From an uncultured Microthrixaceae bacterium (GTDB lineage Bacteria; Actinomycetota; Acidimicrobiia; Acidimicrobiales; DATDAH01): a stretch of DNA of 64,000 nucleotides. The DNA lies in assembly GCA_963701565.1 (NCBI GenBank), contig CAVPAN010000010.1, positions 445,698 to 509,697 on the forward strand, in the 5' to 3' direction. The translations under genes and the position numbers were made by a program. Shown here one piece after another: positions 3,350 through 61,116 of this stretch. The notes beneath the pieces were generated by a model. It searched no databases, had not been told where the DNA came from, and worked only from the letters and a program-made list of their open reading frames with translations. Numbering within the stretch: position 1 is the stretch's first letter; each line of letters begins with the position of its first letter.

Positions 3350-3721
3350 TCAGTACGGCTCGGCCAGGCCGGCGAACATCGGGTAGTGGCGGACGTTGTG
3401 GGTCGCTAGCGCGGCGCCCACGTGCCGAGTCGTGGCTGCGACCACGAGGTCGGCCACCGCCAGGCCGTGCGAGGCCCGGTACTGCCGCCCCAGCTCACCG
3501 GCCAGCCGGGCGATCGGCTGGGTCACCTCAGCCCAGTCGAGTCCGGCGAAGAGCGCCTCGGCCGCACTTCGCTCCGGTGAACGCAGGCCCCGGATCACCT
3601 CGATGCGGGAGATCTCCGAGCACGTCGGCACCTCGTCCAGCCCGGCCAGCCACCGTCTGGCAGGGGCGTGGCCCCGCAGGACGTCGATCAGGACGGTGGT
3701 GTCGAGGACGACAGGCCCCAA
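3350..3721 (-). CDS. vapC: Type II toxin VapC (PIN domain)
   Basis: 123-aa ORF MGPVVLDTTVLIDVLRG...ADLVVAATTRHVGAALATHNVRHY, with the PIN acidic residues in their usual positions. Confidence 0.85.
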   Translation of the reverse strand: MGPVVLDTTVLIDVLRGHAPARRWLAGLDEVPTCSEISRIEVIRGLRSPERSAAEALFAGLDWAEVTQPIARLAGELGRQYRASHGLAVADLVVAATTRHVGAALATHNVRHYPMFAGLAEPY

Positions 3722-4005
3722 CGGTCCTCCACCACCCGGTCACGATCACGGTCCGTCGCCCGGGCGGTCTCGACGAAGTCCCCGCCCGGGGGCAGGTCGG
3801 GCACCGCTCCGAAGGAGGCGTCCACCGCAGCCTGGAAGCGCCCCAAGCGGGAGTCCGTGTCCTGGCGCCCGCCCCCGATCAGACGATCGAGGGCCTCCCG
3901 GATGAGCTCGGACTTGGTCCGCCGCTGGCGGCTCGCCTGCTCGTCCAGCCAGCGGTGCTGGTCGTCATCGAGGTAGATCTGCGTGCGCCGCACGATGTAT
4001 AGCAT
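3688..4005 (-). CDS. vapB: Ribbon-helix-helix (CopG-type) antitoxin VapB
   Basis: Internal ATG at 4003-4005 of ORF 3688..4218 gives MLYIVRRTQIYLDDDQHRWLDEQASRQRRTKSELIREALDRLIG. It lies directly upstream of vapC and overlaps it. Confidence 0.7.
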   Translation of the reverse strand: MLYIVRRTQIYLDDDQHRWLDEQASRQRRTKSELIREALDRLIGGGRQDTDSRLGRFQAAVDASFGAVPDLPPGGDFVETARATDRDRDRVVEDRWGLSSSTPPS

Positions 4006-4009
4006 ACAT

Positions 4010-4115
4010 CGCTGAATCGAGGATGGCCCGGTGATGTCGATGACCGTCGCGCTGACCCGCCAGGTCACGGTCACCTCGGTGCCGATCAGGCCGGGTGGGA
4101 CCGAGTAGCCGTTGC
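4010..4115 (-). mobile_element. Remnant of an IS21-family transposase (IstA C-terminal segment)
   Basis: The same reading frame upstream of vapB reads GVSVGNGYSVPPGLIGTEVTVTWRVSATVIDITGP. This resembles the conserved IstA block (...gnrYsvP..l.G..v.vr.....v.i). There is no start and no remainder of the gene. Confidence 0.3.
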
Positions 4116-4172
4116 CCACACTGACACCAGAGCGTTGTCCGCGACCTTGTGGACCCGTGCCAGCTCGGCCGG

Positions 4173-6221
4173 TCAGCGCCCCGACACCACCCCACCGAGG
4201 CCGACTGCGTCGCGGCACACCGCGGCGAGGGTGGCCTCCCAGTCCACAGGCCGGTAGTGCAGGAACAGCGAGGCGTAGTACCGGCCCCGCAGCGGGGTCG
4301 GGCGGCTGTGGGGCAGCTTGGCGCTCTCATAGAGCAGCATCTGGCCGGGCTCGAGCACGATGTCGTGGGCCCGGCCGGCTGCGTCCTCGATCCGCAGGGG
4401 CCAGGGCTCGTCGGTGTCGGCGGCGATGTGGACCACGGAGCTGATGACGTGGGTGGCCACCCGGTCACAGTGCCGATGCAGGGTCTGGCCCTCGCCGTAG
4501 AGCCGGATGCCGTAGGCGGCACTCGCGACCAGGGGGCCGCCGTACCACTCCTCGTGGAGCTCCTGCATCTCCTGGAGGATCTCCTGGCCCGCCTCCCCCA
4601 CCGGGATGATCGACGGGTCCCCCGACGGGAGGTAGGTGGCGTCGCTGTGCTCCGCCTCGGCCCGGTCCCGGTTGTCCTCGAACAGCGAGCGCAGGCGGGC
4701 GTGGACCGCGGGTGGCGTGTCGATCACCCGGAAGCCGTCGGCCGTGCGCGTGGGGACGAGCTCGTGCTGGCGGGCGGTGAGGGTGTCGGCGTCTCCGGAG
4801 AAGACGGAGTCGACGGGCAGGGCCCTGCGAGCCCAGAAGACGACGGTGAACCGCTGGTCGGCGAAGTCCAGGGACTCGGCGTCGACCGGGCGCACCTCGT
4901 GGAACGCGTCACTGCGGAAGAAGACCAAGCGGTTGTCGAGCGGCGCGATCTCGGTGTATGTGGCCACGGGGTCGATGACGCCGCCCCGGTCGACGGTGTC
5001 GAAGAGGCGCAGGGCCCCGCCGGAGAACCGCCGCGGCTCCCGGTTGAAGTAGTAGACGGCGCTGACCACCCGGGTCTCCGTGTCGGGGCTGCCGGCGTCC
5101 GTGTGGAGCGTGAAGTGGTCACCGGGACCGTGGACGGTGAGCTGACGTTCGATGTGTTGCAGGGAGAACCAGGGGACGTCGAGCTCACGGCGCACGTGGG
5201 GCAGGAGCCGGGTGATCGGTCCTTCGAAGAGGTCCCAGACCTCCGCGAGGTCGAACAGCGTCTGGGAGCGCCGGAGCTCCAGGTACGGGCCGCCCGAGTC
5301 CTCGTCGGGCCGGGTGACGCCGCTCGCCACGAAGTCCGCTTCCCGGGCCAGGGCGAAGGTCAGGAGGCGGGCGTGACCCTCCGGGTCGAGGAAGTCGTCG
5401 AACTGGACGAAGCGGGGGGCGACCGATTCGGGCTCGGGTGGCTCCGCGACGCCCACCGGATCGGGCGGCGACTCGGGCTGGGGGACCACGACCCGTTGGG
5501 CCCGCTCCAGGATCTCGGCCGCGACGTCGGCGGCCTCCGGACGGGGGCCACGGAGCGTGAGCACGTGCTCGGCCAGCCGGGTGACGAGGGCACGGGTCGC
5601 CGGCGTGGTGGCCGGCGGCGCCACCAGGTGGCCGAGGAGCGGGAGGACCGCTCGGGCCCCGGTCACCTCGGCGGGCTCCCAGTCCACGCCGTCGACGAAG
5701 GCCGTGTCCACGATCGCCGCGATGGGGAGGGCGGGCCGATCGGCCCCGGGCGCCTGTCCCTCCATCGGGCCGATCGCCATCGGGAGCACCCGCCCCGAGG
5801 GCTCGATGGCGACGAGGCCGTCGGCGTAGAGGTCGGCACCGGCGGCGACGAGCGCGCCCAGAAGGGTGGACCGACCCGAGCCGGCGGGCCCGAGGACGAC
5901 CACCGCCTGTGGCCCGGCGGCGACGACACCGGCCCGGACGATGACCGTTCCCGGGCGGAGGCGGACGACGATCCCCGGCAGGTCGGCGACGAGCTCCGCG
6001 ATGGCCGTCTCGGCGTCGACCTCCCGGCGCAGACCGCCGTGGTCCCGTTCCAGGTCGTACAAGCCGGGGCCCTCGGCGGTGATGGCGTAGTGCAGGTCGA
6101 CCCGGCCCCCCGAGGTGGAGGGCGGGGGACCGTCGACGGCGGCGCGCCACACGGCGACGAGCTCAGGCGGGAGCTCGACCTCGACCTGGATGCCGCCGAG
6201 GCCCAGCGACAGTGGGCTCAC
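4173..6221 (-). CDS. Tri-domain fusion: HprK-related P-loop kinase-like domain + two 2OG-Fe(II) oxygenase (prolyl 4-hydroxylase-type) domains
   Basis: 682-aa ORF. The N-terminal part has VVLGPAGSGRSTLLGALVAAGADLYADGLVAIE, an HPr-kinase C-domain-like P-loop. The middle part has FTLHTDAGS...RLVFFRSDAFHEVRPV...RFTVVFW (HxD...H...R). The C-terminal part has LHRHCDRVATHVISSVVHI...LLYESAKLPHSRP...GRYYASLFLHYRP (HxD...H). Confidence 0.8.
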   Translation of the reverse strand: MSPLSLGLGGIQVEVELPPELVAVWRAAVDGPPPSTSGGRVDLHYAITAEGPGLYDLERDHGGLRREVDAETAIAELVADLPGIVVRLRPGTVIVRAGVVAAGPQAVVVLGPAGSGRSTLLGALVAAGADLYADGLVAIEPSGRVLPMAIGPMEGQAPGADRPALPIAAIVDTAFVDGVDWEPAEVTGARAVLPLLGHLVAPPATTPATRALVTRLAEHVLTLRGPRPEAADVAAEILERAQRVVVPQPESPPDPVGVAEPPEPESVAPRFVQFDDFLDPEGHARLLTFALAREADFVASGVTRPDEDSGGPYLELRRSQTLFDLAEVWDLFEGPITRLLPHVRRELDVPWFSLQHIERQLTVHGPGDHFTLHTDAGSPDTETRVVSAVYYFNREPRRFSGGALRLFDTVDRGGVIDPVATYTEIAPLDNRLVFFRSDAFHEVRPVDAESLDFADQRFTVVFWARRALPVDSVFSGDADTLTARQHELVPTRTADGFRVIDTPPAVHARLRSLFEDNRDRAEAEHSDATYLPSGDPSIIPVGEAGQEILQEMQELHEEWYGGPLVASAAYGIRLYGEGQTLHRHCDRVATHVISSVVHIAADTDEPWPLRIEDAAGRAHDIVLEPGQMLLYESAKLPHSRPTPLRGRYYASLFLHYRPVDWEATLAAVCRDAVGLGGVVSGR

Positions 6222-6246
6222 GGACGGGAGCGGCGCGGGTCAGGCG

Positions 6247-6861
6247 TCAGCCGGTGGAGGCGGGCCGGGCGGCGACGGGACCTTCGCCGTCGTTGTCAAC
6301 GTTGTTCGGGTCGACGTTCGGGTCCGGGGTCGGTGCCGGCGTGGGGCCCGGCACGGGTGCCGGCGTCGGAGCCGGGTTCGGCGCCGGCGTCGGCTGCGGA
6401 TTCGGCGCCGGCGTCGGCTGCGGATTCGGCGCCGGGGTCGGCTGCGGGTTCGGCGCCGGGGTCGGCGGGATGCCCGCCGCCGCCTGCTGGGTCACGGTCA
6501 CGATCGACTCGACGAAGGGCAGTGCCGCGGCCGCGGCCGCGGTCAGGCCCAGCTTGGCGATCAGGCGCCGTCGTCCCATGCCGGGGGCGCCGGCTGCGGC
6601 CAGTTCGATCAGGCCCGCGTCGACCAGTTCCTCGATGGCCAGTTCCACCACCTGCTGGTCGGCGGGCAGCCCGCTGGCCTCGGCCAGGCGCGGCACCATG
6701 TCCGCGAGGCTGGTGGCGCCGTCACAGAGGTCATAGACGGTCGCTGCGGTCTCGTTGAGGGCAAAGGCCTCTGCGGAGATGTCGTTGAAGACGAGCAGTT
6801 CGTTGTTGGTGCGTTCCACCAGAAGGCCGTCGATGCGCTGCGGGCGGGCGGTGGGATCCAT
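6247..6861 (-). CDS. PqqD-like (RRE-type) domain, then a twin-arginine/hydrophobic segment, then a proline-rich (PTPAPNPQ)n tail; candidate substrate of the neighbouring enzymes
   Basis: 204-aa ORF. Residues 10-85, LLVERTNNELLVFNDISAEAFALNETAATVYDLCDGATSLADMVPRLAEASGLPADQQVVELAIEELVDAGLIE, are PqqD-like. GMGRRRLIAKLGLTAAAAAALPFV follows. The tail is IPPTPAPNPQPTPAPNPQPTPAPNPQPTPAPNPAPTPAPVPGPTPAPTPDPNVDPNNVDNDGEG. Confidence 0.8.
   Translation of the reverse strand: MDPTARPQRIDGLLVERTNNELLVFNDISAEAFALNETAATVYDLCDGATSLADMVPRLAEASGLPADQQVVELAIEELVDAGLIELAAAGAPGMGRRRLIAKLGLTAAAAAALPFVESIVTVTQQAAAGIPPTPAPNPQPTPAPNPQPTPAPNPQPTPAPNPAPTPAPVPGPTPAPTPDPNVDPNNVDNDGEGPVAARPASTG
6377..6470. repeat. 24-bp tandem repeat (about 4 units) encoding PTPAPNPQ
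   Basis: ttcggcgccggcgtcggctgcgga occurs twice exactly (6377-6400 and 6401-6424), followed by two slightly diverged units. Confidence 0.9.
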
Positions 6862-6898
6862 CCGAGGAACCTACCACCGCGCGGCACGGGGCCGGGGC

Positions 6899-7996
6899 TT
6901 ACGGGCGCACCTCGGGCCATTCACGCATCCAGGCGTGGACGTCGGAACTGACGGGATAGTCCAGGCGGTTCCAGCTGTAGCGGCCTTCGCGGACGGGCTG
7001 ATACTCGGCCGCCTCGAACCGGCACGATCCGCGGAGGAAGTCGGCCGTGAACCAGAAGGCGGCATCGGGGTCCCGCAGGCACCGCTCCCGGTGGATCATC
7101 CCGGTGAACGTGCTGGAGAAGGTCCCGGCGAAGCCCTCGGCGAGTACGGCGACCTCCTGGCTCACCGCCGCCAGCGCACTGTCGTCATGGCGGGGCAGGG
7201 CGGCGAAGCGCTCGGCGACGGGGCCGCCGTCGAGGATGTGCCGGTTGAGGAAGACGACGTCGGTGAAGTGCTCCAGGAGGGGGGCGAAGAACCCCGAGGT
7301 CGGGTCGGCCTCGGTGCAGACCACCAACCGCTGGTCCGCCCGAAAGCGTGCCGCGAGGTTGTCCCGGACCTCCCAGGGCATGACCCGGCGGGCGTCGGGC
7401 ACGCCGATGAGGTGGTCGGTGCGACGGATGTGGGCCGCGTTGTACTCGCCCAAGCCCTCGCTCAGGGCGGCGCCGAGGTCGCGATAGGGGGCACGGAGCC
7501 GCACGCCCTCCAGGAGGGTGAAGAGCTCCCGGCGGCGCCGGGGGTTCAGGAAGAAGACGTAGGAGTAGTACCCGAGGGTCCGTCCGGGGACCTCGAGCAC
7601 CGGGTCCTCGGCCCATGCCGGATCGAAGCTCACGACCGGGCGCCCGTGGGCGAACTCAGCCCGGTTCTCGTCGTCCTGCCCGGCTCCCTGGGCGTCGGTG
7701 ACCATGATGGCCGAGCAGTCGGGCCAGTCCAGGACCCGAGCGGGGCCCGCTGCCTCGGTGGCGAACGCGGCGGTGTCCAGCACCGGCACCGGTAGCTCGT
7801 AGAGGTCGATCAGCCTCGACGGTCGGCCGGCGGCGTCGCCCGTCAGCGCCGGCCTCGGGCCCCACCCGATGGGCTCGTCGACCGGCAGGGCCAGCCGGCG
7901 CCCGCTGAGATGGGCCAGGCCGATGGCCACCTCGAGGGCCATCCGCTTGTTGGAGAGGTAGCCGGGATCCAGACCGACCCGCAGGATCGCGGTCAC
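6899..7996 (-). CDS. GDP-fucose protein O-fucosyltransferase-like glycosyltransferase (O-FucT family; GT65/GT68/GT106-type fold)
   Basis: 365-aa ORF with GYLSNKRMALEVAIGLAHLSGRRLALP (compare GGLNQQR....A..LN.TLV.P). It also has the HxRRxD-type motif AAHIRRTDH and GFAGTFSSTFTGMI (compare F.GT..STFS). No signal peptide or TM segment is visible. Confidence 0.7.
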   Translation of the reverse strand: MTAILRVGLDPGYLSNKRMALEVAIGLAHLSGRRLALPVDEPIGWGPRPALTGDAAGRPSRLIDLYELPVPVLDTAAFATEAAGPARVLDWPDCSAIMVTDAQGAGQDDENRAEFAHGRPVVSFDPAWAEDPVLEVPGRTLGYYSYVFFLNPRRRRELFTLLEGVRLRAPYRDLGAALSEGLGEYNAAHIRRTDHLIGVPDARRVMPWEVRDNLAARFRADQRLVVCTEADPTSGFFAPLLEHFTDVVFLNRHILDGGPVAERFAALPRHDDSALAAVSQEVAVLAEGFAGTFSSTFTGMIHRERCLRDPDAAFWFTADFLRGSCRFEAAEYQPVREGRYSWNRLDYPVSSDVHAWMREWPEVRP

Positions 7997-8043
7997 CCCG
8001 GGATCCTACGGGCGGGGCCCGCCCCCCTCGGTAGCCTCGCTCG

Positions 8044-9033
8044 GTGCCGTCCCGGGACGCCTCGAAGATCTTCGTCGCGCTGGCGTCCTACTGTGAGCCG
8101 GAGCTGGCGCTGACCATCGAGGACTGCCTCGCCCGGGCCGCCCGGCCCGAGCGACTGACGTTCGGGGTGCTGCACCAGTTCGACGAGGACGGCGGCCCCG
8201 ACCTCGGCGAGGACGCCCTCGCCCGGTTCTCGGGCGACGACCGGTTCCGCATCGTCACCCGCGACCATCGGGAGAGCCGGGGGGGCTGCTGGGCCCGCCA
8301 CCACGTCCAGGGCCTCGAGGACGGCGAGGCGTTCACCCTCCAGGTCGACGCCCACACCCGCTTCGCCGACGACTGGGACGACGAGCTGATCACGATGGCT
8401 GCCGACACCGGCGCCGAACGGCCGCTCATCACCGGGTTCCCCCCGCTCTACCACCGCGTCGACGACGTCGATGTCCTCGATCGGGGCGACCGGGACCCGG
8501 TGCCGTCGGTGCGAGTGACCCACTGGTCCCCCGAGGGATGGATCGACCACCCAACCGAGATCGTCGACCACGGCGTGGCGCCGCCGCGACGGACCCGGGT
8601 GCTGTCGGGCGCCTTCGTCTTCGCCCCCGGCTCGTGGAGCCGGGACGTGCGCCAGGATCCCGGCTTCCTCTACACCGGCGAGGAGTTCGCGTTGACCCTG
8701 CGCTCCTTCACCCACGGCTTTGAGCTCTTCCAGCCGGCCCGGGTCGTGGTCTGGCACCGCAACCATCCCCAGCCGAACCGCAAGTGGATCAGCGACGCTG
8801 ATCGACCGGCGGTCGACCAGCGCCATCAGCGGGCGACGGCTCGACTGCGGCTGCTCCTGGCCGGTGACCCCGACGGGCGGCTCGGGACCTACTCCCTGGG
8901 GCGACGCCGCACCCTGGAGGACTACCGGCGGTTCTCGGGCCTCGACTGCGCGAACCGGACCATCCATCCCGATGCCTTCCGCGGGATCCCGCCCGACCCG
9001 GTGACCGTCCCCGACGACGCCGACTGGCAGTGA
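8044..9033 (+). CDS. GT60-like 'GlcNAc' glycosyltransferase (Skp1 hydroxyproline GlcNAc-transferase Gnt1 family)
   Basis: 329-aa ORF with IFVALASYCEPELALTIEDCLARAARPERLTFGVLHQ and FTLQVDAHTRFADDWDDELI, matching the family signatures IFVSIASYRD.EC and Q.DSH..F...WD. It is divergent from the O-FucT-like gene across a 47-bp gap. Confidence 0.75.
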   Translation: MPSRDASKIFVALASYCEPELALTIEDCLARAARPERLTFGVLHQFDEDGGPDLGEDALARFSGDDRFRIVTRDHRESRGGCWARHHVQGLEDGEAFTLQVDAHTRFADDWDDELITMAADTGAERPLITGFPPLYHRVDDVDVLDRGDRDPVPSVRVTHWSPEGWIDHPTEIVDHGVAPPRRTRVLSGAFVFAPGSWSRDVRQDPGFLYTGEEFALTLRSFTHGFELFQPARVVVWHRNHPQPNRKWISDADRPAVDQRHQRATARLRLLLAGDPDGRLGTYSLGRRRTLEDYRRFSGLDCANRTIHPDAFRGIPPDPVTVPDDADWQ

Positions 9034-9044
9034 CCGCCGGGGGC

Positions 9045-9944
9045 TCAGCGCTGTTTGGTGGCGACGAAGTCCCGCAGGATGACGAGGAGATCGCGGCAGT
9101 AGTCCAGCCGGGCGTCCTCGGGGTCCACGTCGATCGGGGTCCAGGGCCGGTAGCCCTGCTTGAACCACAGGGTGGCGCCGTCGCGGTCCTCGATCGGTTG
9201 GCAGTAGTGGATGATGGGGGCGCCGGCGACGGCCTCGTCGGGCCAGTTGGTGAACGCGCCGAGGGTCCGGGGCGTCCAGGTCAGGCCCTGTTCCGCCGAG
9301 GCGGCGATGAAGGCGAACATGTCGCTCTCCCAGGCGCCGACCTCCTCGCGGGCGATAGCGGTGAGCTCGATCCAGCGAGGCAGGAGGGCCTCCGAGATCT
9401 CTCGGTGTGGACCAGCGCCGGCCAGGTGATGCCCTGCATCGCCGTCGGGTCCACGCCCGTCTCGCGGGCCAGCACGTCCAGGGTGTCACCGCCGGCGTGG
9501 AAGCCGTACCAGGGTTGGGCGATCGGGGCCCCGGGGACGACCCGGGTGGGCACCGGCGCCCGGAACACCATGTCGGGGTCGAGGAACAGGACGGTGCCGA
9601 CGGGCTGTTCGGTCTGGAGCCATTCCAGGGTCGAGAACAGGCGGTTGTAGGGCACGTAGTGGTCGCCGGTGCGGGGGTGGACGTTGGGGGCCCGGGTCGC
9701 CACCACCCGGGCGTGGCGGTGGGTCGGCAACGGCCCGCCCTGGGGGGCGGCGACCAGGCGGACGAGCTCGCCGGGCTGGGCCACCGCGTGCCAGGTGTGG
9801 GCGAGGATCTGGACCTGCCAGTTGGCGTAGGCCTGGGTGTCGGTGGCCACGATCGAGTAGATCGGCTCGACGTCGGGCGGCGGGCCGGGGTCGGCCACGG
9901 CGGCTTCGGGCACCGGGAGGTCGCGGACGATGCGGGGGCCCCAT
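9045..9944 (-). pseudogene. Hydroxyproline O-arabinosyltransferase (HPAT, GT95)/SGT1-like glycosyltransferase, interrupted by at least one frameshift
   Basis: Frame 1 reads PIYSIVATDTQAYANWQVQILAHTWH...DHYVPYNRLFSTLEWLQTEQPVGTVLFLDPDMVF...ITWPALVHT. After a shift near 9395-9405, frame 2 reads EISEALLPRWIELTAIAREEVGAWESDMFAFIAASAEQGL...APIIHYCQPIEDRDGATLWFKQGYRPW. Block order and motifs parallel plant HPAT1. The start is uncertain (GTG 9913, or ATG 9944 if a second shift is present). Confidence 0.7.
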
Positions 9945-10038: not shown

Positions 10039-11130
10039 TCAGGGCTCGGTCAGGTCCCGGCGGAACAGCTCGGTGCCGTCGGCGTCCATGAGCGTGAACA
10101 CCCAGACCTCGTAGTCGTCCCGTTCGGGGACCGCGTCGGTGTCGAGGCGGACGATCCGGCGGAACCGCTCGGGCCGACGTTCGTCCCGGGACCGGCGCCG
10201 GGCCGCGAAGTCGACGCCGGCCTACGCCTCGTACTCGGCCACCGTGCGCACCGGGCCCAGCCCGTAGGGCTCGAGCGAGGCGGCGTCGCCGAGCAGCAGG
10301 GTCTCGATGCGAGCCCGGCCCCGCTCGTTGGCCTGCTGCCTGGGTGTCGCTGTGGTCGGTCCAGTGCAGCGGGGCACCGTGGTCGTAGTGGTGCCAGAGG
10401 AGGTTCTCGTTGGGATGGCGCAGGTCATAGCCGTGGGTGAAGGCCCGCACGGCCAGGGTGATCTCCTCGCCGGAGAAGTACAGCTCAGGGTCATAGGGGA
10501 CGTCTTCACAGAACCGGCCCAGGGTGAAGATCATCCCGGCGGCGACGAAGGGGCTCGGCCCGGCGCACGGTCGGGTCGGGCGCGGGATCGCCCTGCTGCA
10601 CCGTGGTGAGGTCGGCCCGCAGCTCGACCAGGCCGAGCCGCTCGATGCCGGTGTCGGGGTCGAGCACGTCCCGGCCGTCGCGGCGCCAGTAGGCCTTGGG
10701 GTAGCCGGTGATCAGCGGCCGGTCGGCCTCGATCTCCGCCAGCATGGCGATGAACCGCTCGTCCCAACCGGGGGCGAAGCGGGTGTGGGCGTCGATCTGG
10801 AGCGTGTAGGCCTCACCGTCGTAGAGCCGCCCGACCCGGCTCCGGGCCCAGCAGCACCCCTGGCTCTCGACGGTGGGGCACCGCATCGATCCGGAACCGG
10901 GCGTCGTTGGCCCAGGGCCCCAGGTCGTCGACCGTCTCGTCGTCGTACTGGGCGCAGATCCCGAACCGCAGCCGCTCCGGCTCCGCCGCCTCGGCCAGGG
11001 CGCTGGCGATCGTCCGCGGCAGCTCGGGGTCACGGTAGGACGCGATCTGCACGAAGATCTCGGTCCGGCCCGCCACCCGGCCGAGCCTACGGTGACGCTG
11101 CGGTCCCGGACCCCGGCGCAGCCAGGACAT
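10039..11130 (-). pseudogene. Second GT60-like GlcNAc-transferase paralogue, decayed (three frameshifts plus an in-frame TAG)
   Basis: IFVQIASYRDPELPRTI...RFRIDAVPHR, then a shift (~10866-10875), then ESQGCCWARSRVGRLYDGEAYTLQIDAHTRFAPGWDERFIAMLAEIEADRPLITGYP. A shift at ~10548-10556 leads to FVAAGMIFTLGRFCEDVPYDPELYFSGEEITLAVRAFTHGYDL. A shift at ~10331-10350 leads to QANERGRARIETLLLGD...RTVAEYEA. TAG at 10222-10224 is followed by AGVDFAARR...VWVFTLMDADGTELFRRDLTEP. The whole is collinear with 8044..9033. Confidence 0.7.
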
Positions 11131-11179
11131 CGGCCATCCCGGTCACCCCGCTCATCGGCAGCAGTAGCCTGCCCGGGGC

Positions 11180-11983
11180 ATGGCGGCACTGGTCCCCGGG
11201 GGTGCCCCGAACACGGTCGACGCACCGGTCGGCGGCGGCCCCGCCGTCCGCTTCGTGCAGATCTTCGGCGAGCGGTGCTCGGGGACGAACTACCTCGCAC
11301 GCCTGATCGACAAGAACTTCGGCCCGGTCGAGATCACCACGTCGTTCGGCGGCAAGCACTGGTTCATCAAGGGTCATGAGCCCCGGGGCCGACCGAATCG
11401 ATCGACCGACCTCGAGTGCGTCCGGCGCCTGACCGACGGCGACGACACCCTGTTCCTTGTCATCTTCCGCGATCCGATCGACTGGCTGCGCTCCCTTCAC
11501 GCCCGGCCCTACCACGCGCCGGGGCACTGGAACCTCTCCGTTCGCCGACTTCATCCGGAAGCCGTGGATCTGCTGGGAGCCCGAACGGGCCAATCCCCTC
11601 TGGCCCGGGCCGGGTCCCTACTTCATCGAGGACGCCGACAACGTCGTTCGGCTGCGCAGCCAGAAGATCCGGCATCTCACCGACCTGGAGGGGACGGTGG
11701 CCAACGTCGCCTTCGTGACCTACGAGGCGTTGGTGGACGATCTCGGCGCCTTGGCCGAGGATCGCCGACAGGTTCGGCATCCCGCTGAGCCATCGGCCGT
11801 TGCTCGACGAGACGGCGCTACTTCGGCCAGGCGGAGCGGGCAGACCGTTCGTCGGGCCTCGGACCTACCCGCCGGTCGCCCGCCGGGACCTTCGGTTCAT
11901 CCTTCAGCAACCTCGACCACGACCTCGAGGCGAGCATCGGCTACGACCTGCCGGCCGACGCCGGGGGCGAAGGCACCGCCTGA
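11180..11983 (+). pseudogene. Sulfotransferase-like gene with about three frameshifts
   Basis: RFVQIFGERCSGTNYLARLI resembles a 5'-PSB-like motif and FLVIFRDPIDWLRS a 3'-PB-like motif. The coding sense jumps frame near 11534-11546, 11755-11770 and 11898-11906. The gene ends ...SNLDHDLEASIGYDLPADAGGEGTA* at 11981-11983. Confidence 0.55.
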
Positions 11984-11985
11984 TC

Positions 11986-12936
11986 GTGAGCGGAGGCCCA
12001 CAGGATCCGCCGATTTCGGCCGGCGGTAGTCTCTGGCCCTTGGATCCCGAAGGGCGAGCGGCCGCTGACGGCCCACCGCCCCCTCGGTTGGCCATCCTGG
12101 TGCTGGGCTGCCGGCTACCGGTGTATGACCGGTGCATCCACGCCATACGTTCGACGTGGGGCGCCCGCCCGCCTGTCGATGTCGACGTCCTCTACCTCTA
12201 CGGCCGACCGATCTCCAGCGGCCAGGAGGGCATCGACCTCGGTCCCGTGATCGGCCGGGCCGAGCCCGACCTGGACGAGAACGAGACCGTCAGGCTGGGG
12301 GACGTCATCCTCTGTGGGACGGGGGACGTCTACGCCGATCAGGTCGACTGCATCCTGCGCAAGCGGCTGCTGGCCTTCGCCGCGCTGGCGGAACTCGACG
12401 AGTACGACTTCGTCTACACGGTGTGCGCGTCGAGCTATGTCGACGTGTACGAGCTGCGTCGGTACGTCCGGGGCCTCCCGGCGACGGGCGTCTACCACGG
12501 GCCGCTCGGCGTCTGCGGGTTCAGCGGGTACCCGTTCGTGTCCGGCGCATCCCTCTTGCTGTCCAAGGACATGGTCGCTCACCTCGCGGGTGCCGCCGAT
12601 GAGATCATCGCGACCAACGCCGGCCGTCATGCCGATGATGTGGCCATGGGCCGCTGGATCGCCGAGGCGCTGTGTGAGGAGTCCCTGTCGGACATATGCG
12701 ACCGGATCGCGGCGGGTGAGCCCGCCACCCTCGGGCAGGCGTTCGTGCTCCCCAACGGACGGGGGATGACGAACTGGGTCCAGCCGTCCCCCAAGGACCG
12801 GACACCGCACCCGCACGTCTATCACTACCACTTCCACTCCCGGCGAATCGGGGAGCTCGAGCGCTTTCACCGCCGCTTCTTCGCACCCGTCCCCGGTGCT
12901 GGCGACCGCTCAGCGGACCGGGCCGAACCAGCCTGA
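11986..12936 (+). CDS. GT31/Fringe-like glycosyltransferase (the family of plant Hyp-O-galactosyltransferases)
   Basis: LAILVLGCRLPVYDRCIHAIRSTWG (compare ..R..AIR.TWG), YPFVSGASLLLSKDMVAHL and HADDVAMGRWIAE (compare EDV..G..). The DxD position is atypical (SSYVD). The GTG at 11986 is in frame 2 nt after the sulfotransferase stop; later TTG starts are possible. Confidence 0.55.
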   Translation: MSGGPQDPPISAGGSLWPLDPEGRAAADGPPPPRLAILVLGCRLPVYDRCIHAIRSTWGARPPVDVDVLYLYGRPISSGQEGIDLGPVIGRAEPDLDENETVRLGDVILCGTGDVYADQVDCILRKRLLAFAALAELDEYDFVYTVCASSYVDVYELRRYVRGLPATGVYHGPLGVCGFSGYPFVSGASLLLSKDMVAHLAGAADEIIATNAGRHADDVAMGRWIAEALCEESLSDICDRIAAGEPATLGQAFVLPNGRGMTNWVQPSPKDRTPHPHVYHYHFHSRRIGELERFHRRFFAPVPGAGDRSADRAEPA

Positions 12937-16269: not shown

Positions 16270-16715
16270 GCCTTGACCGTAGGTGGTGGCACCCGCAGCT
16301 AACCGATCGATTCGACCACGACGGCTGGCCCCTCAGGACACTCGACCGGGCGGCGACGGGGCCTCCCGAATCGTTGGTGAGGTCCCGTCAGGAGCGCCGA
16401 GGCACCCCGGATGCAAGCGGCTACGGGACGAGAAGCTTGCGAGCACTGTGAGACACTGCATCGTGACTTTCGGGTCTGGCCCCCGGGCCTACCTCGAAGG
16501 CCACGTTCGGTCGGCAGTGAGCAACAGGACTCGCTCCTAGAAGGGGTCGCCCTCATGGTCATGCGATGTTCTCAGGCGGGGTCACCGCGTGGTCCTCGTC
16601 GTCGCCGTCCGGATTGCCGCTCGCGTTGTCACCCGTACGTCGTGCATGGCCGTCTTGGCTTCCACCTGGGCACCGCCTGATGGCATCGGGTCCGGGCGAC
16701 GATCCCGCTCACGCG

Positions 16716-17375
16716 ATGGGCGACCGCGAGCAAATCGACGCCGTCCAGCAGCGCCTCCGCAGTCCCGACCGGGTCGTGGCGCTCAGTGACGGTGTGTTCG
16801 CCATAGTCCTCACGATCCTGGTTCTTGATATCGCCGTCCCCTCGGAACTGTCCGACCAGTCGCTCAAGGCGGTCCTCGAAGAACTGCGGCCCACGCTGTT
16901 CGCCTGGGTGATCAGCTTCCTGATCACCGGCATGTACTGGGTGACCCACCGGGACCTGTTCACCCGCGTCCGGGTGGTCAGCCGAGACCTGGTCTGGTTG
17001 AACCTGCTCTTCCTGCTCCCGGCCAGCCTGATCCCGTTCGCCGCGTCTCTCCTCGGCGAGTACCCCGACGAGCCGATCTCACTCCACATCTACGGCGTGG
17101 TGATGATCGCGGTCTCGGTGATCCGCCTCGCCATGTACTGGTACGTCATCCGACGGCCCGACCTGCTCTGGGACGAGATCAGCGACCGGTCCCGGCTCGG
17201 ACTCGTCCTCGCCGGTGCCCCGATAGCGGTCTACACGCTCGCGATGGCCGTCGCCCCGGCGTCCACGACCGCGACCGCGTGCCTCTTCTTCTCGGTCCCG
17301 GTGCTCTACTTCACGCTCATCACGGTCCTACGGGACCGAACCGGAACACGAAGCGAAGCCGAAGACTTCTCCTGA
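16716..17375 (+). CDS. TMEM175/DUF1211 family membrane protein (potassium channel-like)
   Basis: Internal ATG 16716 gives MGDREQIDAVQQRLRSPDRVVALSDGVFAIVLTILVLDI... followed by multiple TM helices. RxxxFSDGVFAI-type signature. Confidence 0.8.
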   Translation: MGDREQIDAVQQRLRSPDRVVALSDGVFAIVLTILVLDIAVPSELSDQSLKAVLEELRPTLFAWVISFLITGMYWVTHRDLFTRVRVVSRDLVWLNLLFLLPASLIPFAASLLGEYPDEPISLHIYGVVMIAVSVIRLAMYWYVIRRPDLLWDEISDRSRLGLVLAGAPIAVYTLAMAVAPASTTATACLFFSVPVLYFTLITVLRDRTGTRSEAEDFS

Positions 17376-30073: not shown

Positions 30074-30457
30074 CAGACCCACACACAAGCTGACGTCGGC
30101 CCTCACCTCGGGTGGGGGCCGACTCGCGTCCAGGCCCGGATGACCCGTTCTGGTCGAGAGCTTGGGGATCGGGCCATCGGCAACGCATCGCCGTCCACCT
30201 CGACGCCGAGCCCGACGAGGAGGGCGCCCCCGAAGCGCTGGGCGCCGACTCACTTGGCATCCACCTTGTGTCCATGCGGCGCACCGTCACCTCCCCGTCA
30301 AGGATGGTGAACGCTTCACGACACGGAGCCGCAGCGAGCCAACCCGACCCGTGTGGTCGGGCGCTCCGCCTGCCAGGTTGATCACAAAGCCGGTGGATCG
30401 CAGCCGACGGTCCCGGCGCCTGCTCTACCGTGGCCCGAACGGGCAGGGGGAGCCACC

Positions 30458-32341
30458 GTGAACCTGATCGGCGACTACGGGGTGATCGGCGACTGCCACT
30501 CCCTGGCGCTGGTGGGGCGGGACGGGTCGATCGACTGGTGCTGCTTCCCCCGGTTCGACTCGCCCTCGGTGCTGGCCCGGGTGCTGGACGAGGACGGAGG
30601 CGGGCACTTCACCATCGCCCCGGCCGAGTCGCCCCGGGCCACCGAGCGCGCCTACCTACCCGCCACCAACGTCCTGGCCACCCGGTTCCACACGGGCACC
30701 GGCGTGCTCGAGGTCACCGACTGCATGCCGGTGGCACCCTTCGATCCCGCCCACCCGGCCGAGGTGACCACCCGCCACTCGATCCTGCGCCGAGTCCGGT
30801 GCCTGGAGGGCCGCGTCACCGCCGAAGTCCGACTCGATCCCCGCCCCGAGTACGGGGTGGTTCGGCCCCGGTTCACCCGCACGTCGGCCACCGCCTGGTC
30901 GATCGTCGGCGGGCCCGACGCCCTGTGGGTTCGGGCCACCCTGCCGGTCGAGGGGAACGACGACGGCGTGGCCGCCACCTGGGCGCTCGAGGCCGGCCAG
31001 GAGGAGCTCATCGAGATGGCGTGGACCCCGGCCGCCGACCACCCCGCCCAGGGCTCGGTCGACACCCGGGCTGCGCTCGGCACCCGCTTCACCGACACCG
31101 TCGCCTTCTGGCAGGACTGGTTCGCCCACGACATCTCCTACGACGGCGAGCACGCCCGCAAGGTCCACCGCTCGGCCCTCGTCCTCAAGGCCCTCACCTA
31201 CGCCCCCACCGGCGCCGTCGTCGCGGCGGGCACGACCTCGCTGCCCGAGTGGATCCGCGAGGGCCGCAACTGGGACTACCGCTTCACCTGGATCCGCGAC
31301 GCCACGCTCACCCTCGCCTCGCTCGTCATCCTCGGCTCGCTCCACGAGGCCGGCGCCTTCAAGGGCTGGCTCGAGCGCACGGCGGCGGGACGGCCCGAGG
31401 ACCTGCAGATCATGTACCGGGTCACCGGCGAGCGGCTCCTCCCCGAGGTCGAGCTCGACCACTTGGCCGGCCACCGGGGCTCACTACCGGTGCGGGTCGG
31501 CAATGGGGCCGCCAGACAGGTCCAGCTCGACTCCTACGGGCAGCTCATCGAGGCCGCATACGGCTTCGCCGAGGCCGGCGGCGAGCTTTCCGCCTCCAAC
31601 GGCGAGTTCCTCGCCCGCGTGGCCGACCTCGCCGTCGAGTCCTGGCGCCTACCCGACCAGGGCATCTGGGAGATCCGCGACGAGCCCCGCCACTTCGTGC
31701 ACTCCAAGCTCAACTGCTGGGTCGCCCTCGACCGGGCCGTCCGCCTGACCGAGGCCGGGCGCATCGCCGGCGACGTCGACCGGTGGATCCACGAGCGGGA
31801 CCTGCTGGCCGAATGGCTGCGCAGCGAAGGCTCCCCCGACGGCTGGTTCACCCAGGCCGGCGGCCGCCCCGTGGCCGACGCCGCCACCCTGCTCGTCCCC
31901 GCGCTCGGCTTCCTGCCGGTCGCCCACCCGGCCGTTGACCGCACGGTCGAGACCGTCACCCGCGACCTCAGCGACGGCACGCTGGTCCACCGCTACCTCG
32001 ACCCGGACGGTCTCGACGGCAAGGAGGGGGCGTTCCTGCTGTGCTCGTTCTGGCTCCTCGACTGCCTGACCCACGCCGGCCGCATCGACGAGGCCGACGA
32101 GCTGATGGAGGCGCTGCTCGGCCACGCCAACGACGTGGGCCTCTTCTCCGAGATGGTTGATCCCACCACCGGCGAGGCGCTCGGCAACACCCCCCAAGCG
32201 TTCACCCACATGGCCGTCGTTACCTCAGCCGACGCCCTCACCGCCGCCCGCCACGGCGACCTCCCACCACCCGAACAGGCCTACGCCTTCGCCCTCGAGG
32301 CCATCCGACGACGTCGGCGAGCGGTCGAGCCCGGCGGCTGA
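30458..32341 (+). CDS. Glycoside hydrolase family 15 (glucoamylase/trehalase-like)
   Basis: GTG 30458 gives VNLIGDYGVIGDCHSLALVGRDGSIDWCCFPRFDSPSV...NWDYRFTWIRDA...AFLLCSFWL. Confidence 0.9.
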   Translation: MNLIGDYGVIGDCHSLALVGRDGSIDWCCFPRFDSPSVLARVLDEDGGGHFTIAPAESPRATERAYLPATNVLATRFHTGTGVLEVTDCMPVAPFDPAHPAEVTTRHSILRRVRCLEGRVTAEVRLDPRPEYGVVRPRFTRTSATAWSIVGGPDALWVRATLPVEGNDDGVAATWALEAGQEELIEMAWTPAADHPAQGSVDTRAALGTRFTDTVAFWQDWFAHDISYDGEHARKVHRSALVLKALTYAPTGAVVAAGTTSLPEWIREGRNWDYRFTWIRDATLTLASLVILGSLHEAGAFKGWLERTAAGRPEDLQIMYRVTGERLLPEVELDHLAGHRGSLPVRVGNGAARQVQLDSYGQLIEAAYGFAEAGGELSASNGEFLARVADLAVESWRLPDQGIWEIRDEPRHFVHSKLNCWVALDRAVRLTEAGRIAGDVDRWIHERDLLAEWLRSEGSPDGWFTQAGGRPVADAATLLVPALGFLPVAHPAVDRTVETVTRDLSDGTLVHRYLDPDGLDGKEGAFLLCSFWLLDCLTHAGRIDEADELMEALLGHANDVGLFSEMVDPTTGEALGNTPQAFTHMAVVTSADALTAARHGDLPPPEQAYAFALEAIRRRRRAVEPGG

Positions 32342-57696: not shown

Positions 57697-58006
57697 AGCG
57701 GGCAACTGGGCGGGAGATTGTCGCCCTGGTCGGGCTCGGGCTCGGGCACGTCGACGGTGTCCGACTGCGTTCCGGGGCAGGAGATCGTCGGCCTCGACGC
57801 CCTCGACCGGCGGGAGCCCGTGTTCTCCCGCGAACCGGGCCAGACCGGGTCGCTGTCAGCCGCCGGCGGCAACGTCGTGACTGCTTCCCCGAGCACGGTT
57901 CGGACGACCAGCCCCGTCCCCGTCATCGGCCCCGTCGCCTGAACACGTTCACCGAGGATCTGGGCTTAGGGTCGGGGCGATCCATCACGAGGGAGTGGGG
58001 GCCGGG

Positions 58007-59197
58007 ATGCAGGGCGCGCGGGTCAGGACGAAGGCTGTGGGTGCGGCGTTGGCGATGGCCGTGCTGGTGGTCGCCTGCGGCGGTGACGACAGCGGCGAAA
58101 GCGGCGAGGGATCGGAGTCGTCGCCGACCACCACGAGCCCGCCGACGGTGGCACTGGACGACTACGAGTGGGCCGAGGTGGCCGAAGGGGCGCCCTGGGG
58201 CGGCCGCGCCGGGCTTCGGGTCGTGGACCTCGACGGCACGTTGTTCCTGATGGGGGGCCGCACACCGCGGGACTCGCCCATCCCCGGCGACAGCGACCTC
58301 TGGGGTGACGTGTGGCGCAGCGACGACGGCGGCGTCACCTGGGCGGAGGTCGTGGCGACCGGTGACGCCTGGCCGGAACGGGCGTACTTCCAGGCGGTGA
58401 CCCTCGACGGGTCGATCTACGTGCTGGGCGGACAGAACTTCGCCCTGCCCAGCTCCACCTTCTACAACGACGTGTGGCGCAGCGACGACGGGGCGACCTG
58501 GGAACAGGTCACCGACGCCGCCCCGTGGGTCGGCCGGGCCGGGTTGATGGCCGCGGTCCTCGATGGCCAGATCTACGTCTTCGGCGGTTCCCGCAACGAC
58601 GACAGCGCCGTCGTGGGGCCGGGTGGACCGACACGCGAGTACTTCAACGACGTGTGGCGCAGCGACGACGGGGCGACCTGGGAACAGGTCACCGACGCCG
58701 CCCCGTGGTCACCACGGGCCGGGGGCGCTGCGGCCGTCAAGGACGACCGGCTGTTCCTGCTGGGCGGTGAGGAGGGGTTCGTCTGCTCGCCGCTACCCGA
58801 TTGCGAGCCCCCGTACTTCAACGACGTGTGGTCCACCGCCGACGGCACGACCTGGGAGGAGGTCACCCCGGCGGCGGACTGGTCCTCGCGCCCCGGACAC
58901 CAGTGTGAGGTCCTCGGCGACGAGATCGTCTGCTTCGGCGGGTTCGGCCAGCCCACGAACCCCGTGGACATGTGGTCGAGCCAGGACGGCGCGGACTGGG
59001 TGCTGCTGGACCAGACCCCCTGGAACGCCACGGACCCAGACCAGGTCCGGTACGACTTCGACTCGGTGGTGACCGACCGGGACGGCGGGCCGGCCATCCT
59101 CACCGTCGGCGGCGATCGCGAGACCTTCGACTTCACCGACCCGCTGAACTACACCCGGGTCGATGACGACGTCTGGGCCTTCTCGGCACCGGCCTGA
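58007..59197 (+). CDS. Lipoprotein with Kelch-type beta-propeller repeats
   Basis: MQGARVRTKAVGAALAMAVLVVACGG (lipobox). The blades NDVWRSDDGATWEQVTDAAPW..RAG......G.IYV.GG recur. Confidence 0.75.
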   Translation: MQGARVRTKAVGAALAMAVLVVACGGDDSGESGEGSESSPTTTSPPTVALDDYEWAEVAEGAPWGGRAGLRVVDLDGTLFLMGGRTPRDSPIPGDSDLWGDVWRSDDGGVTWAEVVATGDAWPERAYFQAVTLDGSIYVLGGQNFALPSSTFYNDVWRSDDGATWEQVTDAAPWVGRAGLMAAVLDGQIYVFGGSRNDDSAVVGPGGPTREYFNDVWRSDDGATWEQVTDAAPWSPRAGGAAAVKDDRLFLLGGEEGFVCSPLPDCEPPYFNDVWSTADGTTWEEVTPAADWSSRPGHQCEVLGDEIVCFGGFGQPTNPVDMWSSQDGADWVLLDQTPWNATDPDQVRYDFDSVVTDRDGGPAILTVGGDRETFDFTDPLNYTRVDDDVWAFSAPA

Positions 59198-60961: not shown

Positions 60962-61116
60962 CTCCTCGGGTCCCACACGTTCACGGAGCCTTCCCTGCCC
61001 TGGCGTCGCCCCATGGTGTCAGAGCGCTCCGCTGGAGGCCGCCCTCGGGGCTGCCGCACTCGGCCCCCGGATCGTTGTAGTAGCCGTCCGCCCTATTTTA
61101 GCACTAAACTCGGGTC

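Follow-up and report, generated by a model that had tools for sequence, protein, structure and literature searches.

A fusion of an HprK-like fold with two dissimilar 2OG-Fe(II) oxygenases as candidate hydroxylase of a proline-rich protein in a conserved bacterial glycosyltransferase cassette

The window analyzed here – a 64,000-nt stretch of DNA from an uncultured Microthrixaceae bacterium of the class Acidimicrobiia (contig CAVPAN010000010.1, positions 445,698 to 509,697) – encodes, at positions 4173..6221 of its minus strand, a 682-aa protein of three domains: an N-terminal domain (N-domain) with a PEPCK/HprK fold, followed by two different 2-oxoglutarate (2OG)-Fe(II) oxygenase domains, OXY1 and OXY2. 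As judged from its sequence and that of its neighbors, the protein is probably the hydroxylase of a conserved cytoplasmic pathway in which prolines would be hydroxylated, the resulting hydroxyproline (Hyp) O-glycosylated, and the modified Pro-rich protein exported. A sequence-only reading of the gene had proposed a processive kinase and dual hydroxylase acting on the PqqD-bearing protein encoded next door; a dual hydroxylase with that neighbor as its target is plausible, the active kinase does not stand, and three or four adjacent genes for glycosyltransferases (GTs) of Hyp-glycosylating families, which alter the likely role of the enzyme, had been missed.

Several lines of evidence define the gene. 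The open reading frame (ORF) begins with GTG and its G+C content at third codon positions is 0.93, normal for real genes in this 72% GC sequence. It is the last of a minus-strand run, and near-identical contigs from a sediment metatranscriptome fall within it (4618-4987 and 5133-5380); scans for sigma-70 promoters and intrinsic terminators over 3900-8200 found nothing. Pfam matches PF13640 (2OG-FeII_Oxy_3; E 1e-21) in two stretches and, near residue 105, returns AAA-type families only, all below threshold. The domain split is based on an alignment of 28 homologues, and the three-domain fusion, first read from the letters alone, was borne out by profiles, by AlphaFold2 (AF2) models and by Foldseek.

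Homologues fall into two clades: a long clade with the N-domain and both oxygenases, and a short clade that consists of the N-domain and OXY1, with no second oxygenase. Among 185,579 species representatives scanned, the long three-domain architecture is confined to genomes of Acidimicrobiia; members of the short clade occur in Bryobacterales, Chloroflexota, Rokubacteria, Pseudonocardia and others. The fusion is rare: a survey of 1.84 billion cluster representatives yields just two clusters that cover the three domains together, alongside ∼15 OXY1–OXY2 didomains and ∼20 combinations of the N-domain with OXY1.

OXY1 (residues ∼270-472; 4806..5414, minus strand) is matched by PF13640 with 78 bits against a cut-off of 27. 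Its metal-binding triad, H373-x-D375...H441, and the 2OG-binding R457 are invariant in 28/28 homologues. Among solved structures the profile search ranks DdPhyA first, the Dictyostelium prolyl 4-hydroxylase of Skp1 (6t8m, E 1.3e-12); PPHD and PHD2 follow at ∼1e-7, five orders of magnitude worse. OXY2 (residues ∼478-676; 4194..4790, minus strand) is weak by sequence, with 16.7 bits in Pfam against a cut-off of 27 and a profile E of 0.62 against PPHD (4iw3), and was recognized from its triad and its structure. The AF2 model of residues 478-682 (predicted local distance difference test (pLDDT) score 93) is a double-stranded beta-helix, for which Foldseek lists at the top the EF-Tu prolyl hydroxylase PPHD of P. 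putida, PHD2 and PiuC (E ∼1e-9; template-modeling score ∼0.6 for PPHD and PHD2). H584-x-D586...H638 and R647 are invariant in the 18/18 homologues that have the domain. P. putida PPHD and human PHD2 share with OXY2 the HxD...H triad and an Arg nine residues past the distal His; they differ from it in that the sequence similarity is marginal and both genomic context and presumed substrate are other.

By sequence and model, therefore, the 682-aa protein has the features of a 2OG oxygenase twice over, and both domains look catalytically competent from their residues. The complete triads noticed earlier hold across the homologues with the respective domain, as do the arginines proposed as a check. 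Also upheld is the view that the two modules are of different types: an hhalign comparison of the two domains gives an E of only 0.16. A recent tandem duplication is ruled out by the same value. Stand-alone homologues of OXY2 are present in gammaproteobacterial clusters.

The likely target of these domains is encoded immediately upstream. A 204-aa ORF (6247..6861, minus strand), defined by PF05402 and by alignment of orthologues, ends 25 nt before the start of the 682-aa ORF on the same strand. It comprises a PqqD domain of the RRE type (RRE, recognition element of peptides that are synthesized ribosomally and modified post-translationally, RiPPs; PF05402 30 bits against a cut-off of 23.4, E 7e-7), a twin-arginine (RR)-hydrophobic segment, Pro-rich repeats and a C-terminal RPASTG. 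The link between the two genes that the sequence-only reading had drawn gains support from several sides: in addition to the short spacing, they are neighbors in 6/7 other Acidimicrobiia loci (the sequence of the seventh breaks off at the gene), and the junction is crossed by a metatranscriptome contig (6075-6357). This contig fits co-transcription; such libraries can carry DNA. Aligned with the window, the contig also shows 12 gap letters within the Pro-rich repeat region, which suggests that repeat number varies in-frame between strains.

The Pro-rich region (6301..6474, minus strand) opens with (PTPAPNPQ)n and continues as PTPAPVPGPTPAPTPDP. Tandem repeat analysis finds a 24-nt unit in 4.5 copies with 92% matches; the unit encodes PTPAPNPQ. 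Orthologous proteins carry PTPAPNPQ, PVPT, APPP (L002), PAPA (L003) or PFPSPT (L numbers denote loci fetched for comparison); some tails are composed of Ala and Pro only, and most carry Thr or Ser. These repeats have no residue but Pro in common, which argues that Pro is the target of both oxygenases should the repeats be their substrate. The earlier suggestion of Pro plus Asn/Lys hydroxylation does not survive as a general role: the orthologous tails (APPP)n, (PAPA)n and (PVPT)n share Pro alone. Asn and Gln are peculiar to the window repeat, which rules out a combination of Pro with Asn/Lys hydroxylation in general.

Between the PqqD domain and the repeats lies the RR-hydrophobic segment, GRRRLIAKLGLTAAAAAALPFVESIVT (6490..6576, minus strand), a moderately hydrophobic stretch that resembles a signal of the twin-arginine translocation (Tat) type or a membrane anchor. 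Alignment shows 'RR', 'LP' and 'VE' to be invariant in presumed substrates of the PqqD type from the phyla aligned (window; L004, L009, L010, L016, L017), within the pattern RRxLIxxLxL(T/S)...LPxVE(S/T), and the best 19-residue hydropathy ranges from 1.6 to 2.2. In other phyla the hydrophobic helix is followed by 'AQAQ' or 'SAQ'. The TAT-target model TIGR02811 gives a weak match only (E 0.05). The segment is conserved beyond the need of a plain membrane anchor, and may be a recognition or sorting element. A second conserved feature is found at the C-terminus: presumed substrates of Acidimicrobiia (183-232 aa, with the RRE in cis) all end in P-x-x-T-G, that is RPASTG, RPSSTG, SPDFTG, SPKLTG, QPSVTG, GPTFTG and NPDFTG (window 6247-6270 and orthologues in L001, L002, L003, L086, L087 and L089). 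The motif is missing from presumed substrates of other phyla. It could be recognized by one of the oxygenases or by a GT, or mark a site of processing.

Upstream of the presumed substrate lies a set of GT genes. The first encodes a 365-aa fucosyltransferase (FucT)-like GT (6899..7996, minus strand) with a GT23/65/68-type 'HIRRTD' motif; PF10250 (O-FucT) is matched by 7/7 of its orthologues (best E 1e-6), and the profile finds POFUT2 (4ap5) with an E of 1.4e-3. The second, transcribed divergently (8044..9033, plus strand), encodes a 329-aa GT60-family enzyme with the DxH motif 'QVDAHTRF' (PF11397, E 2e-43), a member of the Skp1 Hyp-GlcNAc-transferase family, and is kept at every orthologous locus with flanks. 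Gnt1, which transfers GlcNAc onto Hyp143 of Skp1, is a member of PF11397. Next comes an HPAT-like GT of the GT95 family (9048..9922, minus strand), apparently frameshifted near 9394-9404 and recognized by tblastn in two frames and by PF23452; the latter is matched by 6/6 orthologues (best E 2.4e-9) and by the window copy at 1e-3. A second GT60 paralogue (10221..11135, minus strand) was found by tblastn and profile matches, and is spread over three frames in the window; its corrected ORF encodes 305 aa. Single-sequence searches of the PDB with the GT60 and FucT-like proteins gave no match. A by-eye reading of N-termini found no signal peptide or membrane anchor in the cassette enzymes.

The broken frames have a simple explanation. 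Contigs of two independent metagenomes, 97-99% identical to the window, are without one base at each of seven positions (9394, 9404, 9951, 10042, 10336, 10565 and 10872), and in the window the extra base is in every case a single G or C. Deleting the seven bases restores two uninterrupted ORFs, the HPAT-like gene (broken at 9394 and 9404) and the second GT60 gene (broken at 10336, 10565 and 10872). The breaks are most likely insertion errors of the assembly. That the two genes are pseudogenes is disfavored, since two independent metagenome assemblies are without the bases exactly at the breaks.

The arrangement is not peculiar to the window. Six other Acidimicrobiia loci share with it the gene order [HPAT][GT60][FucT-like][PqqD-RR-ProRich][fusion] in the same relative order and orientation; the flanks of these six mostly differ, and the five-gene cassette is therefore the conserved unit. 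Four loci carry in addition a convergent gene for an NAD-dependent sugar epimerase/dehydratase (L001 12031-13062; L086 7484-8527; L087 7263-8255; L089 9995-10912), and one locus carries a GT77-like Nucleotid_trans gene (L003 5320-6327). Enzymes of the GT77 family lengthen Hyp-arabinosides in plants. Both kinds of accessory gene are missing from the window.

Beyond the Acidimicrobiia, a hidden Markov model (HMM) census of 90 sequences (89 fetched loci plus the window) found the same modules clustered in Gammaproteobacteria (Luminiphilus syltensis NOR5-1B, Halieaceae, Elongatibacter sediminis, Thiohalocapsa and Lysobacterales), in one deltaproteobacterial metagenome-assembled genome (MAG) and in one Acidobacteriota MAG. 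There, OXY1 and OXY2 are encoded separately, and other modules are joined in new ways. Three gammaproteobacterial loci (L024, L033, L037) have the N-domain attached C-terminally to the FucT-like GT; the N-domain profile did not detect it in the FucT-like protein of Luminiphilus. PqqD is fused to HPAT-like GTs, as confirmed in L041 (E 7e-13 and 2.5e-11) and L042. A separate Pro/Thr-rich protein that has the RR-hydrophobic segment and is without PqqD is found in L033, L037, L041 and L047; the gammaproteobacterial proteins of this kind are about 124-190 aa long, with a helical N-terminal leader in place of PqqD. Such shuffling of modules between fusions implicates them, by the Rosetta-stone argument, in one pathway. 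The fusions outside Acidimicrobiia further point to the Pro-rich protein as the substrate, with PqqD as the recruiter.

The whole system is seen, in other fusions, in the cultured Luminiphilus syltensis NOR5-1B (L041 3436-13458, NZ_DS999411.1). Its parts are a PqqD–HPAT-like GT fusion, an HPAT-like GT–PqqD fusion, a FucT-like protein that has a long extension at its C-terminus, OXY1 and OXY2 as stand-alone proteins, a pair of GT60 genes, and a protein of 124 aa made up of leader, RR-hydrophobic segment and Pro/Thr-rich region. A protein combining DUF5672 with Sulfotransfer_2 adjoins the cluster. With tblastn, homologues of the NAD-epimerase and of the DUF5672/sulfotransferase of other loci were not found in the window. 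At two short-clade loci with an intact P-loop (L004 8613-8963; L005 8410-8760) a stand-alone PqqD gene is preceded by two ORFs of 40-41 aa, which may encode precursor peptides.

The composition of the tails and the distribution of the GTs bear on what the oxygenases and GTs act upon. The oxygenases might hit other residues or another substrate, or Hyp might be an end in itself, for instance by stiffening a polyproline-II rod, with the GTs acting on Thr/Ser or on a non-protein acceptor. Such an arrangement would accord with the inclusion of Thr-modifying enzymes in GT60, with the Thr or Ser of most tails, with the promiscuity of 2OG oxygenases in target type, and with the census, in which OXY1-type single-domain homologues occur without GTs at many loci (50 single-family loci). 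We nonetheless consider it unlikely: the (APPP)n of L002 and the (PAPA)n of L003 offer almost no Ser or Thr in their repeats, each domain has protein prolyl hydroxylases as its nearest solved relatives, and across phyla both oxygenases are accompanied by GTs of the HPAT and GT60 types.

A second alternative concerns the 204-aa protein, which could be a membrane-anchored RRE chaperone whose Pro-rich tail is a spacer, the true substrate being a separate peptide or protein. NCBIfam calls TIGR04353 a 'peptide chaperone', Pro-rich linkers are common in Actinobacteria, and the short-clade loci have their two 40-41-aa ORFs. The rearranged clusters tell against a chaperone: in L033, L037, L041 and L047 the Pro-rich protein keeps an RR...LP..VE-type segment without PqqD, and in L041 and L042 PqqD is fused instead to HPAT-like GTs. 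In the Acidimicrobiia cassettes no conserved small ORF was seen. On balance this explanation appears slightly less likely still than the preceding one, and the Pro-rich protein itself remains our preferred substrate.

We turn to the N-domain (residues 1-245; 5487..6221, minus strand). Its AF2 model (pLDDT 89) shows an HprK/PEPCK-like alpha/beta fold around the P-loop, in agreement with the first assignment, and a Foldseek search of the PDB at E <= 1e-3 returned 17 chains, all of them ATP-PEPCK or HPr kinase/phosphatase (E 5e-5 to 1e-3). HprK/P likewise ranks top when the N-domain profile is compared with PDB sequences (E 0.02-0.03). TIGR04352 (HprK_rel_A) matches residues 91-148 only, at an E of 1.7e-5 and with 24.1 bits against a cut-off of 200. 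The P-loop-like string picked out earlier, GPAGSGRSTLLGALVAAGADLYADGLVAIE, corresponds to residues 111-140 and holds a degenerate P-loop, GPAGSGRS.

It is in the catalytic motifs that the domain departs from its relatives. The Walker A Lys (G-x-x-G-x-G-K-[ST]) is replaced by Arg in the window protein (GSGRS) and is missing in 17/17 long-clade proteins that carry the N-domain, the window protein included; the other 16 have T, E, R, S, P or G at this position. Close relatives read GSGTS or DAGTS, and several other members of the long clade are without the whole loop. The acidic pair of the HprK motif 'ADD', which follows the P-loop helix, has become 'ADG' in the window protein and SDG, SEG, SCG, STG or SIG in relatives. 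The Walker A Lys is likewise missing from the gammaproteobacterial fusions of a FucT-like GT with the N-domain. The short clade retains it in 9/9 cases, in a canonical GRSxTGKS[T], together with an 'SDE' motif that aligns with 'ADD'.

On this loss of motifs we reject the N-domain as an active kinase. Because the domain is conserved and confidently folded despite the loss, we read it as a pseudokinase kept for binding: most likely a catalytically dead docking module. With the defining catalytic features of the kinase family absent from its sequence, the 682-aa protein should not be classed as a kinase. It is accordingly very improbable that an active HprK-type kinase and two hydroxylases work processively on the PqqD protein with phosphorylation as part of the chemistry, for which the fold, the still recognizable glycine-rich loop (GPAGSGRST), precursor phosphorylation by lasso-peptide HPr-kinase homologues and the GKS[T] of the short sister clade would speak, and against which stand the missing Lys, the Gly in place of the second acidic residue of 'ADD' and the low TIGR04352 score.

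Together these observations suggest a pathway of hydroxylation, glycosylation and export that might proceed in four steps. The HprK-fold pseudokinase would probably first serve as dock or scaffold for the RRE-type PqqD domain, which the substrate carries in cis. Both oxygenases, of the PHD/P4H type, would then hydroxylate prolines of the Pro-rich tail, a target suggested by homology and by tail composition. The two modules are dissimilar, and would probably differ either in regiochemistry (4-Hyp and 3-Hyp, or 3,4-dihydroxy-Pro) or in the sequence context served. The GT60-type, HPAT-type and FucT-like neighbors would next O-glycosylate Hyp, as their family membership and strict co-occurrence suggest. 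The internal twin-arginine/hydrophobic segment might finally export or anchor the modified tail, possibly via Tat. Judged by eye, the enzymes are without signal peptides or anchors, and modification would therefore precede export. The end product may be a surface or secreted hydroxyproline-rich glycoprotein (HRGP).

A number of points weigh against this pathway. Hyp and glycan are both predicted here from genes and structure models, and the HPAT-like and FucT-like assignments rest on weak HMM scores. Trypanosome members of GT60 modify Thr and many tails have Thr or Ser, so that glycosylation need not be on Hyp. The P-loop of the window protein still reads G-x-x-G-x-G-R-S-T, and residual nucleotide binding is possible. 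The RR-hydrophobic segment lies within the protein (residues 96-124), some 95 residues past the N-terminus, and has no match to standard Tat-signal models. Lastly, no obvious ribosome-binding site precedes the GTG start of the 682-aa ORF.

Three known systems invite comparison. The Skp1 pathway of Dictyostelium and Toxoplasma (PhyA, the GT60 enzyme Gnt1, then PgtA and AgtA) is cytoplasmic, as is presumed for the cassette, and likewise couples prolyl hydroxylation by a PHD-type enzyme to a GT60 transferase. Its fucose and GT77-type extension enzymes also have counterparts, in the FucT-like GT and in the GT77-like gene of L003. Gnt1 and the product of the neighboring GT60 gene share a Pfam family. 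Gnt1 is the partner enzyme of PhyA, to which it is often fused at the gene level in protists (PMC6437050). In the Skp1 pathway just one Pro in a folded protein is modified, whereas the presumed target here is a long Pro-rich repeat tail. The present system further differs in its bacterial host, its HPAT-like GT, its second, unrelated oxygenase, its PqqD domain and its HprK-like pseudokinase.

The HRGP pathway of plants and algae (P4Hs, HPAT/GT95, RRA and XEG113 of GT77, and ExAD) resembles the pathway proposed for the cassette in its Pro-rich repeat substrates, in placing Hyp-O-glycosylation after prolyl hydroxylation, and in its exported product, and the extensin- or arabinogalactan-protein-like motifs of plant HRGPs – Ala-Pro, Thr-Pro, Ser-Pro and Pro-Pro-Pro – resemble the tails found here. 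HPAT (GT95) starts Hyp-arabinosylation in plants (PMC5371791). The plant enzymes are type II membrane proteins of the Golgi and endoplasmic reticulum that work in the secretory lumen, whereas by eye those of the cassette have neither signal peptide nor anchor. The PF23452 match that links the cassette to plant HPAT is weak (best E 2e-9).

The third comparison is with the HPr-kinase homologues of RiPP systems (PadeK, ThcoK, SyanK; HPr-rel-A), which likewise combine an HprK fold with a PqqD/RRE protein. Here the background offered by the sequence-only reading proved correct on both counts: lasso-peptide HPr-kinase homologues phosphorylate their precursors (PMC8498205), and the names given by NCBIfam ('HPr-rel-A system', TIGR04352 and TIGR04353) pair HprK-related kinases with PqqD proteins. 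The likeness extends to the short sister clade, which combines N-domain and OXY1 with PqqD next door and has its P-loop intact. The window protein has, unlike them, lost the P-loop Lys and the catalytic acid, and its scores are low (24 against a cut-off of 200, 25 against 35). In addition, its N-domain is fused to oxygenases, and its presumed substrate, ∼200 aa long and carrying the RRE in cis, does not look like a short leader-core peptide. Among the cassette genes none for a protease was seen.

Within the literature searched, the bacterial prolyl hydroxylases of the PHD type that are discussed all act on EF-Tu (PMC6437050). A full-text search found no bacterial system of the kind described here in a literature that was incompletely covered. 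To our knowledge Hyp O-glycosylation is regarded as a eukaryotic trait, the cases being plant and algal cell-wall glycoproteins and Skp1 of protists.

These comparisons raise a broader idea, which we put forward tentatively and with less confidence than the role of the 682-aa protein itself: several bacterial phyla may own a complete cytoplasmic, RRE-guided HRGP pathway, in which two hydroxylases act, Hyp is glycosylated by GT60-, GT95- and FucT-type enzymes, and export follows. If true, this would be the first bacterial system for Hyp-O-glycosylation. As a plausible prokaryotic source or sister of both the Skp1 (PhyA/Gnt1) and the plant extensin (P4H/HPAT) machineries, it would inform the question of where the eukaryotic enzymes came from, and it would offer, in prokaryotes, a model of extensin- or mucin-like glycoproteins. 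It would also mean that RRE/PqqD domains and an HprK-derived pseudokinase have been reused as recruitment modules for the modification of whole proteins, and would provide a source of enzymes for engineering Hyp-glycosylated polypeptides in bacteria. Two of the carriers, Luminiphilus syltensis NOR5-1B and Elongatibacter sediminis CH-27, are cultured, which makes the idea directly testable.

The remaining features of the window stand apart. Directly downstream of the 682-aa gene, and unrelated to the cassette, is a VapBC pair made up of a VapB-like ribbon-helix-helix antitoxin and a PIN-domain toxin (3350-4050, minus strand). On the other side of the cassette two ORFs of the plus strand (11180-11788 and 11457-12029) overlap in different frames; they read like one gene with another indel and include 'FGERCSGTNYL'. 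They are followed by a 378-aa ORF with 'DDVAMGRW' (11800-12936, plus strand), and Pfam found no families in the window ORFs at 11180-11500 and 11800-12936. Further along the minus strand are a DsrE-like protein and a PIG-L family deacetylase (1191-2430). The plus strand encodes a homologue of TMEM175-type K+ channels (16566-17375), a GH15/trehalase-like hydrolase (30311-32341), a Kelch-repeat protein (57881-59197) and a protein combining HEAT with a GT4 glycosyltransferase (61108-63198).

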